From positions 64,001 through 128,000 of IMG/VR virus record IMGVR_UViG_3300025168_000033: a DNA stretch of 64,000 nt; one strand, written 5' to 3'. Each line of letters starts with the position of its first letter. The first letter of the stretch is position 1. The translations under genes and the position numbers were made by a program. Source of the DNA: a virus. Positions 20,731 to 57,341 of this stretch are shown piece after piece. The notes below the pieces were generated by a model. It did no database searches, was not told where the DNA came from, and was given only the letters and a program-made list of their open reading frames with translations.

Positions 20731-21585
20731 TTATTTATCTTCAGATAGTTCGTCTTTTAATTGAGGATAATATTGATGTGTAGTTGTATCAGTCATGGAT
20801 TTGAATGATTTTATATCATCTTCTATTAAAGCTTTACGAACTTTAGATGCACTAATATTATCATCAGTACGTTTTATTTCATGAGCTTTAAATTCTGGAT
20901 CTACATTTAAATCCAATCTATAAGAATCTTTTTGAATTTGACCGCTATAGGCTTTTAATCTATCTGATCCAGTACCCCACAAAATAGGCTCATATTCAGG
21001 ACGTAATTCATTATAAATTGTATCTATACCCGCTCTTGAAATAGTTCTGAATCCTTCTATAAATTTATGTTTCTTTGCAAGATCGTTAAATATTTGCTCT
21101 ATTAAACCTTCACTAAACGGTGTTTTTTCCTTGTTAATTTTCTTTGCACGCACCATAAGTACTATTACAGGATATCCATTTTCTTCGGACAAAGATTTAA
21201 GAACTTTTATATGTCCTAGCGTCGGAGGTTGAAAACGTCCCGCAATAATATTAACTTTTTTATTGCCAGGTTCTGTTGAATCTACCTTTAAAGCTTCATT
21301 TAAAGATTCAGATATTTTTCCGGTTTTAGATACTTTATAATATGTAGGTATTTTATCCCAATCTTTACCGTTAGTTTTTATGCCTGAATACATTTGATTT
21401 TTATCACTTTTCCATGCACCACCAGTTCCATCTTTATATTTGATCATGGTTGGTGTTTCTTCATAAAACCACCAATCGCCATCAGAATGCTGTGCTAAAT
21501 ATCTTGCCCAATCTGGGATATTTTTAAATTTAGGAAATTGTTTTCCTTCATTTATGAAATCAAAAAATCTTTTGAATCTATTCAT
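20731..21585 (-). CDS. HxGH-class nucleotidyltransferase (cytidylyltransferase/NMNAT-like) with an extra N-terminal domain and CTS-like leader
   Basis: GRFQPPTLGH, GSDR, ISASKVRKAL; leader MNRFKRFFDFINEG; internal ISESLNEA. Confidence 0.85.
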   Translation of the reverse strand: MNRFKRFFDFINEGKQFPKFKNIPDWARYLAQHSDGDWWFYEETPTMIKYKDGTGGAWKSDKNQMYSGIKTNGKDWDKIPTYYKVSKTGKISESLNEALKVDSTEPGNKKVNIIAGRFQPPTLGHIKVLKSLSEENGYPVIVLMVRAKKINKEKTPFSEGLIEQIFNDLAKKHKFIEGFRTISRAGIDTIYNELRPEYEPILWGTGSDRLKAYSGQIQKDSYRLDLNVDPEFKAHEIKRTDDNISASKVRKALIEDDIKSFKSMTDTTTHQYYPQLKDELSEDK

Positions 21586-21586
21586 G

Positions 21587-22816
21587 TTAATTGTTTAATT
21601 TTAGAAATTCAGAAAATGATAAAGTAACATCAGATTCATTTGTATTTTTAGCTATTGTAACATTATCAATATTTGTAATGATTTGATTGATGTCATTAAT
21701 CATAGCCTTATCTATAACCTGTGTTGCTCGTTTACGTAATTTTTTAAATGTTCCAATAAGAACTTTAAAAGTATCATGATAAAGCGGCTTAGACTTTATT
21801 AATTTTAATGCTTCTTTATTATCTATAAATTTATAGTTAACTTTGAATTCAGGTATTTTTGCAAAATCTGGAGTATCAAATTCAAATCCATCTATGACAG
21901 ATTTCTTTTTAGATACAAAGTCTACAAATATCTGTGACATTAAATCGATATATCTATCGTCTTTTGTATTACCCGATATTGAATAAGAATCAACACCATT
22001 AATTCTCATAAATTCAACCATTTGCATAATAGCAATTGCCGTTGAATCCGGTGTTTGTCTTGGCTTTTGTCTGTCTTTTGATTTTAATCTAGCATTTGCA
22101 GTAAAAAGTGGATCGACCATTTTAGCACTAAATTCTTCTTTAGGACCGCTTATGAATTTAAAAACAATTCCTTCAATAGGCTTGTCTAGATCATTTTGTA
22201 ATGCAGTTTTTTTAAGCTTTGGATTAATTATAGATAGAATATATCTTACAAATGAAGTAGTTTCAAATTTCTTAACTAGATCTTCAAATGGTGTTTGAAT
22301 AAATTCCAATAGGTCTTCTCTTTGTTGTGGTTTTAATTTGCCACTAAAATATACAGGCGGTTCATCAACATTAATTATATTAGCCCATTTACTAAGAACC
22401 TTTGGATCGGTAATAACTTTCTTGGTTCTTCCACCTGAATCAACAATTTTTATATCTGTAAGAACTAAAGAATTTTTAGGCATTTTATCATATAACGTAT
22501 TGACTGGCTTCTTGTTTACAAAATATTCAAATCCAAATCTAAAATCTGTTGGCAATAATTTCTTTTTAGAATCTGCAATAGCCTCAATAAATTCAATAGG
22601 CCTTTCAAATACAGACATCATAGTTCTTTCAACCTTACTAATAGGATTTTTAGGATCTCTTTTATAGAATAAAATTGATTGATCCGATTGCTTTTGAAAT
22701 TCAAATCTAGTACCATCCAATTTCTCAGATACTAATACATAATTATTTAAAAGTGACTTAACAAATTCTTCTCCTTTTTTAGAAGATATATCAAATAAGT
22801 GTGGTAATCCGGCCAT
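21587..22816 (-). CDS. ATP-dependent ligase-like covalent nucleotidyltransferase (RNA-ligase-like)
   Basis: Motif I SEKLDG, III FGFEYF, IIIa LVLTDI, IV EGIVFK, V SAKMV. Confidence 0.7.
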   Translation of the reverse strand: MAGLPHLFDISSKKGEEFVKSLLNNYVLVSEKLDGTRFEFQKQSDQSILFYKRDPKNPISKVERTMMSVFERPIEFIEAIADSKKKLLPTDFRFGFEYFVNKKPVNTLYDKMPKNSLVLTDIKIVDSGGRTKKVITDPKVLSKWANIINVDEPPVYFSGKLKPQQREDLLEFIQTPFEDLVKKFETTSFVRYILSIINPKLKKTALQNDLDKPIEGIVFKFISGPKEEFSAKMVDPLFTANARLKSKDRQKPRQTPDSTAIAIMQMVEFMRINGVDSYSISGNTKDDRYIDLMSQIFVDFVSKKKSVIDGFEFDTPDFAKIPEFKVNYKFIDNKEALKLIKSKPLYHDTFKVLIGTFKKLRKRATQVIDKAMINDINQIITNIDNVTIAKNTNESDVTLSFSEFLKLNN

Positions 22817-22835
22817 TGTTTTTGTTTATGTTGTA

Positions 22836-23990
22836 TTATTTTATTTTCATTCCAATCATCATATTCTTATCGGAAATACCAATAACAATACCATCTCTTT
22901 CATATTCAGTTCCGTCAGCATAAGCACCAATTGGCTTAACATATTTAAATCCAAGATTTTTAATAAGTTTTGAAGTAATATCAAATCCTAGACTGGATTC
23001 AAATCCAGTAACTTTACCAAATCCAGTAACAAATCCTGTTTTAGCTGCAATTATACCTTTAGGATTTTTTTGAAATGCTTCAGGAGCAACAGTCTTAAAT
23101 TCTTTTACAAATGCTTTCCATATTGGATCACTAGATAATGTTTTTCTGTCCCAAGTAAAATCACGAATCATTGAAAAACTATCCGATTCAAATACTTCTA
23201 TTCCATTATCACCATAGAATTTTTTAATTATATCGTAAAGATCGTCCTTTGCATCTTGATTATTTTTTATAAAAACTTTTAACGGTCTTATTAGATTTAA
23301 AAAGTTTTTTCTACTAAGCTTCATTTCTTCATCTATAAATTCAGACTCATTAATAGATTTAAGATTTAATTCAATTAAAGTATTAACACCATCTCTATGA
23401 ACCTCAGAAAATTTGACATCACCAAAATCAGATAAAATATCTTTTAAAATTGTTGTATCTAATTCTATTATCTCATCTTTTAAATGTTCATAAGCAGAAG
23501 TATAAAATTGTAATTTGCCACTTCTTAATCGTGCTATTAATATTCCAATATTTTCAACTGCTAGCCAGGCATGCCTATTTCTTTTGCCTCTTCGACTTAC
23601 TTTACGAGCCATTAATTCTTCTATTAAAAGCGCTTGAAATCTAGAACTAGCCTGATCAACACCACTATAAGTAATATTATCTGTTACAAAAAAATCATAT
23701 AGTGTATCAGCTTTAAAAGTTTCATTTAATGGAAATGACCATTGTCTTGATGACATTGGTGCATAAGGAGCTAATTTCTTCCATGCCTTTTCAGCATCTT
23801 TACGTTTACCAGCTTTATCCAGATCCTGTATCATTTGATTAGTTGTTTCCCAATCAGCAATACCAGCCTTATAAGCTCTCGGATCATCACTCATCATATA
23901 AGTCCAATCCATAGATTTTAATTGTGCCTCAAGATCCTTGATAGTAACTCTTTCATTTAAGAAATCGTCAAACTTTTTAAATTGTCCCAT
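22836..23990 (-). CDS. Putative internal head multi-domain protein
   Basis: Leader MGQFKKFDDFLNER; internal LNET, INES, VFES; DW.Y..SDD.R domain. Confidence 0.6.
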   Translation of the reverse strand: MGQFKKFDDFLNERVTIKDLEAQLKSMDWTYMMSDDPRAYKAGIADWETTNQMIQDLDKAGKRKDAEKAWKKLAPYAPMSSRQWSFPLNETFKADTLYDFFVTDNITYSGVDQASSRFQALLIEELMARKVSRRGKRNRHAWLAVENIGILIARLRSGKLQFYTSAYEHLKDEIIELDTTILKDILSDFGDVKFSEVHRDGVNTLIELNLKSINESEFIDEEMKLSRKNFLNLIRPLKVFIKNNQDAKDDLYDIIKKFYGDNGIEVFESDSFSMIRDFTWDRKTLSSDPIWKAFVKEFKTVAPEAFQKNPKGIIAAKTGFVTGFGKVTGFESSLGFDITSKLIKNLGFKYVKPIGAYADGTEYERDGIVIGISDKNMMIGMKIK

Positions 23991-24004
23991 TGTAATTTAT
24001 AATT

Positions 24005-24943
24005 TTAATTCCATCCGCCAGAATAGTAATCACTACCACCTGAAACTTTTGGTATTTTGAATGTTTTTCCGTTTATTGTAAATGTAGCTGTGTAAAAATA
24101 TGTAGTAGAAAATGAAGAACTAACAACTGCGCTATGCTCACTTCCTAGCATCTTGATTTCTTTTACATCTATTTTATCCCACTTAACATCATCACCTTTT
24201 AGTATAATTTCTTTAATGTATGCAAATGGTTTAGCCATTGGAGGTTGAACCCATGCCAATTTACCAAGATTAGTTCCGTTTCCACCAGGTCTATCTGCAA
24301 CTTTATACATGTCTGTCTTATATTCTATTAGTTCTCTGATATTGAAATCCGTCCACCAACTTCTTGCAAATTGAGCCATCTTTGGAATTCCAAATTTTAA
24401 TATATGAGCCTTCTCAACATCAGTAAAAGTTTTAATTATATCATAAAGCTTGTATTTTTTGTTAAGTTCACGTCTATCTTTACTTGCAAGACCAGACCAT
24501 AATGCATATATAATCTCATCATCGTCATTATCTTCAATTAGCTTAGTATATGAAGCTGCTAATCTAACTGCTTCTTCCTTGCTTCTAGGATCTGCATTAT
24601 TACGATGTGCATCTTTATAATCATCACCAAAGTTTCTGAATACCTCTGTAAATTCCTTTATCATCTTTGAATTTGGTGTTCTACCTGTTCCAGCTGCAGC
24701 TAATATATCATTTTTATCGTTTTCACCGAGTTCAGCAAATTTAGGATCTTTAACAAGCTTTGCTAATGTTATATTTGTATCAATTCCAGCATTTTTTAAT
24801 GACCAAGCAAGATCTCCTTGTTTACTTTCAACATCACCTTTACTATAAGAATTCTTTATTGTATAAACTTTCTTTACAACTTTCATATAATCGCCGTAAT
24901 AAGCTTCGTTTAAAAATTGTTCATAGGATTGTATCTTCTTCAT
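24005..24943 (-). CDS. Putative internal head protein
   Basis: Leader MKKIQSYEQFLNEA, identical to that of the neighbouring gene. Confidence 0.65.
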   Translation of the reverse strand: MKKIQSYEQFLNEAYYGDYMKVVKKVYTIKNSYSKGDVESKQGDLAWSLKNAGIDTNITLAKLVKDPKFAELGENDKNDILAAAGTGRTPNSKMIKEFTEVFRNFGDDYKDAHRNNADPRSKEEAVRLAASYTKLIEDNDDDEIIYALWSGLASKDRRELNKKYKLYDIIKTFTDVEKAHILKFGIPKMAQFARSWWTDFNIRELIEYKTDMYKVADRPGGNGTNLGKLAWVQPPMAKPFAYIKEIILKGDDVKWDKIDVKEIKMLGSEHSAVVSSSFSTTYFYTATFTINGKTFKIPKVSGGSDYYSGGWN

Positions 24944-24946
24944 AAT
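24902..24946. repeat. 45-bp direct repeat, copy 1 (leader cassette)
   Basis: 44/45 identical to 25343-25387. Confidence 0.9.
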
Positions 24947-24952
24947 ATGTAT

Positions 24953-25384
24953 TTATTTGTTTAGGTCTTTATTAAAATCAATGTAACTATCACGATCTGT
25001 AAGTTTTTTCATTCCTTGAACCATATCTCTAGTTAATGATTCTTTATTATCGTATGCAATAACTAAAAAGAAGTCTGCGTTGTTACCACTGTCATTTTGT
25101 CTATCTGAAGATTCCCATCCCGGACCCCATTTCACCCAAGATCCATTTACTGATTCAAGATTTTTCACATCCTTAGTATAAAGATCACCAGCAGCATTGG
25201 TTGTTAACAAATATGCAAAGTCTTCTTTATATTTGAAGTTTTTGTCTTTTGGTTCATAAACATCGAATCCGAGTTTCTTAAGACCTTTTTTGATATTAGG
25301 CATATCACGTATAATGTAATGTGGTTCATATCTAGAAGTATTAGCTTCGTTTAAAAATTGTTCATATGATTGTATCTTCTTCAT
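24953..25384 (-). CDS. Putative internal head protein
   Basis: Leader MKKIQSYEQFLNEA; GATATATAA motif upstream at 25403-25412. Confidence 0.65.
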   Translation of the reverse strand: MKKIQSYEQFLNEANTSRYEPHYIIRDMPNIKKGLKKLGFDVYEPKDKNFKYKEDFAYLLTTNAAGDLYTKDVKNLESVNGSWVKWGPGWESSDRQNDSGNNADFFLVIAYDNKESLTRDMVQGMKKLTDRDSYIDFNKDLNK

Positions 25385-25387
25385 AAT
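25343..25387. repeat. 45-bp direct repeat, copy 2 (leader cassette)
   Basis: 44/45 identical to 24902-24946; the single difference is synonymous (Ser TCA/TCC). Confidence 0.9.
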
Positions 25388-25453
25388 CGTACTTTTGTTT
25401 TTTTATATATCTTTGCACTATCTATAGTTAAATATAAACAATTTTTTTGACAT

Positions 25454-25486
25454 AAAAAAATCTGGAAGTAACGAATTTCCAGATTT
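25454..25486 (-). terminator. Rho-independent terminator
   Basis: AAATCTGGAA / TTCCAGATTT stem running into T7 on the minus strand, downstream of the NTase gene. Confidence 0.75.
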
Positions 25487-25490
25487 AAAT

Positions 25491-25513
25491 GGTCGTAACC
25501 ATCCCGGTCCTAA
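25491..25513 (-). other. 23S rRNA helix-69-like segment, antisense on the mRNA strand
   Basis: + strand GGTCGTAACCATCCCGGTCCTAA versus conserved 23S GGCCGTAACTATAACGGTCCTAA, 19/23 identical. Confidence 0.55.
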
Positions 25514-25525
25514 AATCGGTTTATT

Positions 25526-26455
25526 TTATGCCATTTCACTTGGATAAGGAAATCCAGCCTTGACAATTCCTTCTTTATATACTTTTATTATTTCACTTAA
25601 TTTGTGTTTGTGAATAAATTTAGATGAATTCATCCAGTTCCAAATAGATTCGAATGAATTTAAATCATTCACCTTTCCTTCGGGTCCTAAAACAAATTTA
25701 GCAATATCATCAATATTTTTTGTAATAGCTTTGTCTGCACCTTTAATTGTAGATGCATTTTTCTTTCTTCCCCTTTTACCGTCAAATGATTTAGTTTGTA
25801 TTTTTAAACCGTCATGTGCAGTAAGAGTATATTTTTGAAAGTCTTTTACTAATCCTTCATATTCACCGCCAAATTCTTTCTTATAGATATTTGGTTCACC
25901 ATCAAAATCGATATTTTGAATAATATCATAAATAAGTTTAGTTCTATAAACTCCTTTATATTTTGATTCTTCTTTTGTAAAGTCTGGTGAATGATAAATG
26001 AATGTTGCTAATTTAATATCATCAACAACCATAAAATCTATTTGAACAAATTTATCTGTAATCTTGCCTTTTTCATCATACTGTGGAAATTTAATGTTTG
26101 TAACACCTAATCCTTTAGTAAGATTTGTTTCATATTTAGGAAATGTTTTTGTTAGTTGATTATAAACTTCCGTAACAACATCGCCAAATGATAATTTATT
26201 TGCAGCACCATAAACTAATCCGTTTATTGAAATATCAATATCACCAGATGTAGATCCAGCTTTCTTTTTAAATGTACTTCCTAATACACCATATTCATCT
26301 TTATTTAAACCAAGAACTGGCTTGATAAATGTCTTTAATAAAACGTCAAATGTCGGTTTTTGATATTCCGCTGGAATAGGATGAGTGCCATTAAATGCAT
26401 TACCTGATTCCAGTAATCTTTCTTCAACAAAAGCTTCAAATAATTTAAATTCCAT
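25526..26455 (-). CDS. Pol-beta-superfamily nucleotidyltransferase with CTS-like leader
   Basis: LGS...SGDIDISI ... VQIDFM catalytic triad pattern; leader MEFKLFEAFVEERLLES. Confidence 0.8.
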   Translation of the reverse strand: MEFKLFEAFVEERLLESGNAFNGTHPIPAEYQKPTFDVLLKTFIKPVLGLNKDEYGVLGSTFKKKAGSTSGDIDISINGLVYGAANKLSFGDVVTEVYNQLTKTFPKYETNLTKGLGVTNIKFPQYDEKGKITDKFVQIDFMVVDDIKLATFIYHSPDFTKEESKYKGVYRTKLIYDIIQNIDFDGEPNIYKKEFGGEYEGLVKDFQKYTLTAHDGLKIQTKSFDGKRGRKKNASTIKGADKAITKNIDDIAKFVLGPEGKVNDLNSFESIWNWMNSSKFIHKHKLSEIIKVYKEGIVKAGFPYPSEMA

Positions 26456-55562: not shown

Positions 55563-57341
55563 TTAAAATGATTTTTTTACATCAGCTTTACGCTGTCTTG
55601 TAATTTGTGAATTGATATCTTCAATAATCACATCCTTGATTATTACATTCAATGAGCTAAATTCTGCATCACTAGCAGTATCTTCAAAATAAACACTATT
55701 TCTATCTGACCAACCACCACGTATAATTGGAAATTCATTTTCACCAATGATTATATCATTAAATTCATCAAGTCCTAAAGACGGATCTTCACCTTTAGCT
55801 ACCGGTATTTTTTCAACTATTTCCTCTTTAATTGAAGTCAATCTATTTACTTTAAATGATTTCTTCCAGTAGTATCCATTTGCAATTGCCTCTTCATTTT
55901 CTTGGGATACAAATTTAACATTAACAGAATCAACACCAGAAACTCCTTCAAGTATTTCAATAATATCTGACTTTGGAATTTTATCTCGCCTTTTAACATT
56001 AACAAAATATTCACCGAGCCTTGCAACAATATCCGCCTTTAATACCGATTCATCCGCAGTATCAAATATTCTTAAATAAATATTAAGCAAATATCTTTTA
56101 ACTATTGGATCCTGTATTTTAACTTCTGTAGTTACAATTTGTCTTCCACTTTTTTGAAGAACTTTTTTAAGCGCAGATTTTTCATCAGCATCAATATAAA
56201 AGTTATCTACGTTTGTAGAAAAATATTCTGAACTTGCATCAAGTTTCTTTTTAATATTAGGAATCAAGAACAAATAAATAATATTGTCATCATCAAGATA
56301 TTCATCATCAAATGTAGTATAAGCATCTATAAATGAAAAGGAATCATACCGTGATAAAAAGTGAATATAATTACGCGGGTGTGCGAGAACTAATGACCTA
56401 GAATTTGATCCAGCTATAAGCCTTGTTAAATCTAAATCTTCACCGTCAGATCCGAGCAAGAATTTTTCTTCAACCGACACAAACATTACTTCATTTAAAT
56501 CGATTTCTTCACCTAAAATTCCAGTTGCATCATCCAAAAATTCCCATTCAATTGTAGTTGCCTTTGAACTTATAATTCCAATAGCACCAGCTGAAATAAT
56601 ATATTCAATTTTTATAGTAGCACCAGAAGGAGGAATAGTCCCGTAATCTTCATTGCCAAAATAAACATCAATTCCAGCAGTAATAGAAGTTTTTACAATT
56701 ACCGCTTTATCACCTTTATTCATATCATATAATGATTCTACAATATCATATTTTTCACCATTAACATAAACAAAAACATGTTCATTTTCAATTTCACCAT
56801 TCCCACGAATAAAAACATTAAATGATTGTAATTCATCACCAGTACTAATTCTATTTTGACTTTCTAATTTTCCTTGAATAGCCTTTAAAGATAATTTTTG
56901 TGATGAATTTTTATCCCATCTAATTCTCTCAGAATCTAACATAATCAAATATTCCTGACCATTTGTTTTGTTATTTATTGATGTGAAATTATTAATAAAG
57001 AAAAAGTTTGATTCTATATCCGAACTTGCCCCTGGTTTTAATTTAAGTCCTAGCATTCCTTGAGCAGAAATAGCTCTTGTCGGATTATGACCACTTAATC
57101 TAGCCATCCCATAAATAGAATCAGCTTTACTAGCTTTAAAAATATTTAATTCTGTTATAGAATCTTCAATATATAAAAGAATTAAATCTACATATTCACT
57201 TAATACTTGAAGTATTTGTCCATATGCAGACGAAGGCGAAAATACTTCACCTGTTTGTCTATATTTATTTACTAAATATTGTAAAGATTGATTTTTTAAT
57301 TCACTAACCTTTACTTTTGCTTTATCTAAAAATCCAGCCAT
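55563..57341 (-). CDS. gp6: Baseplate wedge protein (T4 gp6 / P2 gpJ-like)
   Basis: SIYGMARLSGHNP.RAISA, VYFGNEDYGTIP, IEYIISAGAIG, GSDGED. Confidence 0.85.
   Translation of the reverse strand: MAGFLDKAKVKVSELKNQSLQYLVNKYRQTGEVFSPSSAYGQILQVLSEYVDLILLYIEDSITELNIFKASKADSIYGMARLSGHNPTRAISAQGMLGLKLKPGASSDIESNFFFINNFTSINNKTNGQEYLIMLDSERIRWDKNSSQKLSLKAIQGKLESQNRISTGDELQSFNVFIRGNGEIENEHVFVYVNGEKYDIVESLYDMNKGDKAVIVKTSITAGIDVYFGNEDYGTIPPSGATIKIEYIISAGAIGIISSKATTIEWEFLDDATGILGEEIDLNEVMFVSVEEKFLLGSDGEDLDLTRLIAGSNSRSLVLAHPRNYIHFLSRYDSFSFIDAYTTFDDEYLDDDNIIYLFLIPNIKKKLDASSEYFSTNVDNFYIDADEKSALKKVLQKSGRQIVTTEVKIQDPIVKRYLLNIYLRIFDTADESVLKADIVARLGEYFVNVKRRDKIPKSDIIEILEGVSGVDSVNVKFVSQENEEAIANGYYWKKSFKVNRLTSIKEEIVEKIPVAKGEDPSLGLDEFNDIIIGENEFPIIRGGWSDRNSVYFEDTASDAEFSSLNVIIKDVIIEDINSQITRQRKADVKKSF

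Follow-up and report, generated by a model that had tools for sequence, protein, structure and literature searches.

Large phages carry a family of small structured RNAs, 72 to 100 nt long in the relatives found, whose two conserved unpaired boxes together complement an unbroken run of about 20 universally conserved nucleotides in 23S rRNA. The best reading of this family is an antisense RNA that would pair with the host 23S rRNA at the helix 69-70 site, a proposal in which, judging from comparative sequence evidence, we place about as much confidence as doubt. With slightly more reserve, we suggest that large phages may use it as a dedicated small RNA on the helix 69-70 junction of the host 23S rRNA, controlling subunit joining or late 50S maturation. 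As far as the literature could be found, the family is without an earlier description, and it has no Rfam family. Why consider base pairing with 23S rRNA in the first place? The only invariant parts of the RNA are the complement of the contiguous 23S stretch just mentioned, which makes pairing the most economical explanation.

One member lies in the window, as we call the whole 64,000-nucleotide stretch of viral DNA that was analyzed. A sequence-only reading of this DNA had pointed to a 23-mer, GGTCGTAACCATCCCGGTCCTAA, at 25491-25513 (+), as resembling helix 69 (H69) of 23S rRNA. Both its position and its match were verified: aligned to a fetched E. coli rrn operon with the numbering checked, it is identical to 23S 1906-1928 at 19 of 23 positions. 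The 23-mer, with a G+C count of 13/23 in a window of about 30% G+C, is placed between the TAA stop of a 309-amino-acid (aa) open reading frame (ORF) and a hairpin-plus-U7 terminator at 25454-25486, and the genes around it in the ORF list all lie on the minus strand. Read on that strand, hereafter the gene strand, the spacer consists of the stop, AAUAAACCGAUU, UUAGGACCG, GG, AUGGU-UACG-ACCAU, UUAAA, UCUGGAA-AUUCGUUAC-UUCCAGA, and U7. RNAfold predicts exactly two hairpins on it, P1 and P2 (z = -3.2). The whole element occupies about 72 nt, 25454-25525 (-), the 23-mer being its front half. Its parts and immediate surroundings are as follows.

25526..26455, minus strand: upstream gene encoding the 309-aa protein, Pol-beta-type nucleotidyltransferase (NTase)-like; outside the RNA family
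25526-25528, minus strand: TAA stop of the 309-aa gene, 12 nt ahead of box A
25514..25525, minus strand: 5' leader AAUAAACCGAUU, a tentative feature from alignments and upstream sequences
25505..25513, minus strand: box A, UUAGGACCG, unpaired and near-invariant, antisense to 23S 1920-1928
25489..25502, minus strand: hairpin P1, AUGGU-UACG-ACCAU, from the predicted fold, with compensatory changes at two pairs family-wide
25484..25488, minus strand: linker UUAAA between P1 and P2, AUUUAAA in most members
25461..25483, minus strand: hairpin P2, UCUGGAA/UUCCAGA, from predicted folds; the stem varies and the loop is kept
25468-25476, minus strand: conserved 9-nt loop of P2, AUUCGUUAC
25468-25475, minus strand: box B, UUCGUUAC, antisense to 23S 1930-1937 with one G.U
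25454..25460, minus strand: U7 tract that completes the intrinsic terminator; likely 3' end of the RNA
25385..25453, minus strand: spacer, presumed to hold the promoter and ribosome-binding site for the following gene; outside the RNA

Two further G.U pairs could lengthen P1 to 25487-25504, and the UNCG-type hairpin GGAUGGU-UACG-ACCAUUU, proposed in the earlier reading as an alternative fold, is indeed the predicted fold of the window spacer. P2 and the U7 tract (25454-25486) form a stable hairpin directly followed by a U tract, as in an intrinsic (Rho-independent) terminator. For the leader AAUAAACCGAUU, two roles are conceivable: 5' strand of a short helix, P0, or -10-like box of a promoter. 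A related box, AUA(U/A)ACG(R), recurs in subfamily 1 (described below), and the candidate P0 would join CCG of the leader to CGG at 25503-25505, with an outer pair that changes from A-U to C-G in the alignment, a slight hint of pairing. Past the RNA, the next ORF encodes 143 aa and starts at 25384; the spacer at 25385..25453 precedes a different gene in L004 and L005, two loci whose element is identical to that of the window and whose 309-aa protein is 99% identical. ARAGORN found no tRNA or tmRNA in the window, and Rfam 15 gave no match to the window at gathering score. When seven member loci were compared with Rfam by E-value, the only match was a weak one to SpF11 (26.7 bits, where the gathering score is 54; E 0.68).

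More than 30 distinct members were found, all from viral or metagenome contigs, using exact patterns over IMG/VR and the JGI metagenomes, and BLAST and a covariance model for GenBank megaphages. On the gene strand, their order is box A, P1, linker, P2 with box B in its loop, and U tract, which follows P2 in the members found. Box A is UUAGGACCG, usually followed by UUA. P1 has the form AUNGN-UNCG-NCNAU in subfamily 1, where two of its pairs show compensatory changes (AUGGU/ACCAU, AUAGC/GCUAU, AUAGU/ACUAU, and AUUGC/GCAAU). Subfamily 2 instead has CGUUAYCC-loop-GGRUAACG, with one pair that is U.G in some members and C-G in others. The linker is U/A-rich, mostly AUUUAAA, and has diverged in the megaphage members. 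P2 stems of 6 to 12 bp differ in nearly every lineage, yet their pairing is kept, and the loop holds UCGYUAC (GUGUCGCUACC, AUUCGCUAC, AUAUCGCUAUC, and, in the window, AUUCGUUAC), the form in Pseudomonas phage PA5oct aside. Some members have an extra hairpin or the short helix P0 ahead of box A. In L036, L038, L055, and L072, there are one or two extra GC-rich hairpins in this place, the first of which comes with a U tract of its own and resembles a terminator for the gene upstream. Just past the U tract of P2, L033, L036, L040, L051, and others carry a TTTG ... CATATATTTAT-like motif that may be a Bacteroidota-type promoter of the next gene.

How far is the conservation of the boxes independent of the way in which members were sought? 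Box A was fixed in most search patterns, so its invariance is only partly independent, and the conservation of the AUUUAAA linker was likewise partly set by the patterns. Box B was left unspecified in several searches; these returned only structured members that carry box B, plus unstructured chance matches that are without it. A search with box B relaxed gave 11 extra matches, all of them unstructured chance matches. The megaphage members found by the covariance model keep both boxes despite their changed linker. On these comparisons, the two boxes are the only invariant unpaired parts of an otherwise covarying scaffold, and the earlier proposal that UUAGGACCG is exposed in the window extends to the family as a whole.

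What do the two boxes complement? Box A is antisense to 23S 1917/20-1928, that is, the 3' strand of helix 69 and the junction, while box B, (U)UCGYUAC(C), complements the neighboring stretch, 1929/30-1936/37, at the start of the helix 70 region. UCGCUACC pairs with 23S 1929-1936 (GGUAGCGA), UUCGCUAC with 1930-1937, and the window's UUCGUUAC with 1930-1937 with a U opposite G1933. In all 23 members scored, the 5' region has 10 to 18 contiguous pairs (G.U allowed) to 1914/20-1928/31 and the P2 loop has 7 to 9 pairs to 23S 1928/31-1936/38. The target sequence is identical in E. coli and Chryseobacterium (Bacteroidota). The earlier reading did not include this second antisense box of the terminator loop (1929/30-1937), which as a sequence finding strengthens the core idea. 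The 7-mer target of box B, GTAGCGA, occurs once in E. coli 23S and 16S rRNA, at 1930, one base past the target of box A; a conserved 7-mer within 12 nt of that target has a chance of ~7e-4, and both boxes jointly ~3e-5. A conserved unpaired seed facing a conserved complementary target is what marks a trans-acting base-pairing small RNA (sRNA), and the boxes and 23S 1917-1937 provide such a pair. What is conserved family-wide, though, is complementarity to 1917/20-1937 and not to the whole of H69. Of the earlier claim that the element is antisense to H69, the part concerning the 3' strand and junction (1917/20-1928) applies throughout the family, whereas the match to the 5' strand and loop (1906-1916) is simply P1 of the window's subfamily.

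The substitutions within the boxes point in the same direction. Seven events were counted, and five of the seven retain the pair through G.U (p 0.002 to 0.2, according to the share of transitions assumed). In these five, G replaces the A that faces U1923 (in two separate lineages), or U replaces the C that faces G1922, G1930, or G1933. Pairing is lost in the other two: in L006/7, box A begins with C in place of U, and in LR756504, box B has C in place of the A that faces U1931. Among 401 Bacteroidota genomes, no host 23S was found with C1923, the Watson-Crick partner for the UUAGGGCCG variant.

Could the family be real and its boxes nonetheless serve a protein or another nucleic acid, for example, rrl gene DNA, with the likeness to 23S left as a relic of captured ribosomal DNA? 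We consider this unlikely, but there are several points in its favor. The boxes are short (9 to 12 and 7 to 9 nt), and their order is permuted, box A lying 5' of box B, the opposite of simple antisense and awkward for plain antisense pairing. The element also shifts between gene contexts, like an autonomous module. When members were hybridized in silico to E. coli rRNA with RNAduplex, the 5' region selected the H69 site in 21 of 27, while the short loops often chose other rRNA sites, such as 23S 1160-1173, some at similar or better energy; energy alone therefore does not single out the target. On the other hand, a protein site would have no reason to complement two adjacent 23S stretches, nor to vary mainly by G.U-compatible transitions, and simple capture of ribosomal DNA predicts a colinear order, not the permuted one. 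As for a target inside the phage itself, the 108-kb record holds one exact 9-mer complement elsewhere, without a box B partner, and thus no bipartite target.

That the likeness to H69 is a coincidence in what is otherwise an mRNA-stabilizing hairpin plus terminator is decidedly improbable, though the window by itself would give little reason to say so. The chance-frequency estimate proposed in the earlier reading comes out differently according to what is asked. Over the whole 23S, 2.07 matches of 19/23 or better are expected per 64-kb window and 2 were observed (window base composition, ungapped), whereas for the H69 23-mer alone only 5e-4 such matches are expected per window. Many conserved sequences are recognizable to a reader, so the window match alone is not significant; its contiguous complementarity to 23S is only 9 nt. 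(The other 19/23 match, at window 56813-56835, is antisense to 23S 2167-2189 and is AT-rich, of the chance type.) By the sequence comparisons, significance derives from the relatives and not from the window. The spacer of L007 differs from the window at 9 of 23 positions, and at each of the four positions where the window departs from H69 it has the H69 base (p ~2e-4 if the window match were chance). Relatives match the 23S complement at 20 or 21 of 23 positions versus 19 in the window, so the fit is better in the relatives, and the second conserved box fits the adjacent 23S stretch. In addition, the P2 loop is kept from 95-kb to 735-kb phages, unlike the loops of ordinary terminators, which are not conserved, and the element is present in single copy, unlike a generic terminator.

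The gene strand was taken to be the RNA by virtue of the U tract on that strand, the co-orientation with the upstream gene, the UNCG loops, and the U.G/C-G pair. It was also postulated that the plus strand is the functional one, a sense mimic with GGUAGCGA in its loop and UAACGGUCCUAA as its tail that would act as a decoy for a host nuclease or other protein that recognizes 23S. Folding energies do not distinguish the strands, P2 being slightly more stable on the plus strand; a C.A mismatch on the gene strand of L018 becomes U.G on the plus strand; and an H69-like stem is possible on the plus strand in the window subfamily. Against these stand the U tract after P2, which exists on the gene strand only, and the constant co-orientation with the upstream gene. 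The P1 loops are UUCG or UACG on the gene strand only, and the U.G/C-G pair of subfamily 2 works only there. The 5' strand and loop of H69 are not kept family-wide: subfamily 2 replaces the 1906-1916 stretch by an unrelated P1, so H69 itself is not mimicked, and we regard a plus-strand decoy as very improbable. The same region of 23S is also the homing site of I-CeuI, but the contiguous 26-bp TAACTATAACGGTCCTAAGGTAGCGA is absent here; its halves are about 45 nt apart and permuted, and allowing up to 3 mismatches to the 23-mer gave no match.

Which genes does the element accompany? It always has the same orientation as the gene whose end lies just upstream, with 10 to 105 nt between stop codon and element across members, and this gene varies. 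It is NTase-like in the window and L007, a tail tube gene after a sheath gene in nine loci, a gene for a 163- to 201-aa protein in eight loci, and others elsewhere; two loci have no following gene on the same strand. The variety of upstream genes means that there is no linkage to NTase or ligase genes. Of the earlier expectation that the element would be conserved in relatives and linked to such genes, then, only the conservation was borne out. In the window, the element sits in a cluster with the NTase-like gene, an RNA-ligase-family gene (PF09414, below the Pfam cut-off), and a helicase. The 309-aa protein has no Pfam or PHROG match; its 11 homologues share an invariant GS..SGDxD, typical of Pol-beta-type nucleotidyltransferases. 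Relatives of this protein (P0008 and P0064) are fused to a cytidylyltransferase-like domain and adjoin RNA ligase genes. Homologues of 74 to 77% identity mostly have the next gene right behind the stop, without a spacer, but one lineage of 75% identity (L006-L010) has a homologous spacer, whose 23-mer matches H69 at 18 of 23 positions. L002, a relative of 48% identity, has no element. A guide or splint for rRNA repair or modification by the neighboring NTase and RNA ligase, suggested by this cluster and by boxes that meet at 1928/1929 like the arms of a splint, is the least credible of the readings, as the neighborhood is not conserved, the NTase-like gene being confined to the window and L007 lineages while tail tube and other unrelated genes lie upstream in most relatives, close NTase-like homologues are without the spacer, and the break in the guide strand at the junction would suit nick-sealing ligases poorly.

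The family is distributed over phages that share few genes. The GenBank megaphage members are LR756501/3 (735 kb), LR745206, LR756502, and LR756504, with genomes of 634 to 735 kb; these megaphages are predicted to replicate in Bacteroidetes (PMC7162821). A single significant copy was found in each of six genomes (108, 153, 182, 194, 319, and 735 kb), two of them records rated 100% complete (319 kb and 182 kb). One copy per genome excludes a generic terminator or a repeated cassette. PeSL-like terminator-promoter cassettes of T4-type phages occur in many copies per genome, and a cassette of this kind was ruled out by the same count. Among 185,579 prokaryote genomes, there was no true member; the sole match, in Chryseobacterium, lies inside a long ORF without the hairpins and is a chance match. 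Megablast against GenBank phages gave no match to the element, the only result being a faint Lak-phage match within the NTase-like gene. Under strict filters Lak-A2 yielded no member, and the RNA was not found in the Vibrio phages KVP40, nt-1, and BONAISHI, the covariance model match in nt-1 being an ordinary terminator. A full-text literature search found no phage RNA antisense to 23S.

Of particular use is a divergent member in a cultured phage, Pseudomonas phage PA5oct (MK797984.1 115,474-115,590). It lies directly behind a stop codon, in the unannotated 136-nt gap between EST35_0189 and EST35_0190 (MK797984.1 115,474-115,609; L117:1175-1310), and consists of CUUAGGACCG, a hairpin, UUCGCUACC, and a terminator, so that box B is outside the terminator loop. 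Ten cultured P. aeruginosa jumbo-phage isolates, including Paride, have a PA5oct-type element that is identical or 99% identical. The RNA-seq annotation of PA5oct lists four noncoding RNAs, and this member is not among them (PMC7318152). A BLAST match at 20,995 of PA5oct is an ordinary terminator, not a member.

How does the RNA compare with known systems? Trans-acting sRNAs combine a seed with a Rho-independent terminator, and those derived from 3' untranslated regions (UTRs) share the terminator of their mRNA. The phage RNA resembles them in its size, its 5' single-stranded box, its A/U-rich linker, its terminal hairpin with a U tail, and its place behind a stop codon. It differs in that its complement is the core of 23S rather than an mRNA, that its second box lies in the terminator loop, and that it is known here from sequence. 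Bacteroidota, the likely megaphage hosts, generally lack Hfq to our knowledge, which also departs from the setting of trans-acting sRNAs. Phage examples of base-pairing small RNAs have been reviewed (PMC12197685). In CopA/CopT of R1 and RNA I/RNA II of ColE1, as here, bases are offered in a hairpin loop and a single strand, and pairing at two sites would lead to a junction complex; such loop-plus-tail complexes resemble the proposed one more than a linear duplex does. However, these antisense RNAs are encoded opposite their targets and are fully complementary to them, whereas the phage RNA is far from its putative target, to which it has a permuted complementarity of about 20 nt. A cis-encoded antisense RNA of the CopA type was considered and rejected, the phage record having neither a 23S gene nor a bipartite target. 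So was a box C/D or H/ACA guide; inspection of the alignment showed no RUGAUGA/CUGA, no ACA tail, and permuted arms.

Viral RNAs with complementarity to rRNA are not without precedent. Motif 1 of the calicivirus termination upstream ribosome-binding site (TURBS) pairs with 18S rRNA, and 3' cap-independent translation elements are likewise complementary to rRNA. These share with the phage RNA a viral origin, a position near a stop codon, and a conserved rRNA complement. The TURBS type, however, acts in cis on the small subunit, retaining ribosomes for reinitiation, while the phage RNA would face the large subunit, its distance to the stop codon varies over the range given above, and in some members no gene follows on that strand. 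A synthetic counterpart is the peptide nucleic acid (PNA) against H69. It is aimed at the same ribosomal region but hits the loop and stem of H69, unlike the phage RNA, whose putative target is the H69 3' strand together with the junction leading to helix 70.

The earlier suggestion of a ribosome-directed 3' UTR or small RNA is the one that the family-wide evidence favors. From the family, its fold, its single-copy status, and its complementarity, we infer the transcript ends, the binding, and its consequence as follows. (i) The RNA would be either the tail end of the mRNA of the upstream gene or a transcript begun shortly ahead of the element, and in both cases would end at its own intrinsic terminator. 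(ii) The covarying hairpin scaffold would present the two unpaired boxes, box A at the 5' side and box B in the terminator loop. (iii) The loop and the single-stranded box would make the first contact, in the manner of antisense RNAs that present a loop. (iv) Simultaneous binding of both boxes would create a three-way junction at 1928/1929, where the helices formed by boxes A and B would meet the P2 stem. (v) Subunit joining or late 50S maturation would be disturbed, or the rRNA marked for a double-strand RNase.

On what form of 23S might the RNA act? In the mature 50S, 23S 1920-1924 is paired within H69 and the target is largely structured, and for this reason action would be expected on nascent or immature 23S, or on free 50S with helices 69 to 71 undocked. 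H69 forms bridge B2a and is moved during recycling. Pairing in this region can be inhibitory: with a PNA directed against H69, both translation and growth of E. coli are reported to be blocked (Kulik 2017, cited in PMC12828698). Two counterpoints must be set against the antisense reading. A phage depends on working ribosomes, which may sit awkwardly with hitting a universal ribosomal site, and the permuted boxes demand the three-way-junction geometry if they are to bind simultaneously.

We know of no phage that remodels translation with an RNA aimed at the rRNA of the catalytic subunit. Phages are known to remodel it with bS21, S1, tRNAs, and synthetases (PMC7162821). If the antisense reading is true, the family would represent a new kind of phage-host contact, made through a single-copy RNA that complements a highly conserved, central stretch of rRNA. 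It would also amount to an RNA-based seizing or throttling of host ribosomes, conserved from jumbo phages of 95 kb up to the largest phage genomes known and found in cultured Pseudomonas phages too, and to a natural case of antisense inhibition at a site to which work on synthetic antibacterials has already turned. The PA5oct-like phages, with P. aeruginosa PAO1 hosts and existing RNA-seq, make the idea directly testable.

Two further observations concern the genes next to the window element. The 143-aa ORF (24953-25384) is missing in the near-identical L004 and L005, where the spacer runs straight into a 312-aa gene. The break of this indel coincides with a repeated 45-bp leader that encodes MKKIQSYEQFLNEA (24902-24946 and 25343-25387), and from the sequence it looks like recombination between the two leader copies. 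Finally, many unrelated neighboring genes in the window at 21587-26455, in L007, and in L022 start with MK.[IL]..[FY]E.F[LV]NE, an N-terminal motif that may be a shared leader or targeting signal.
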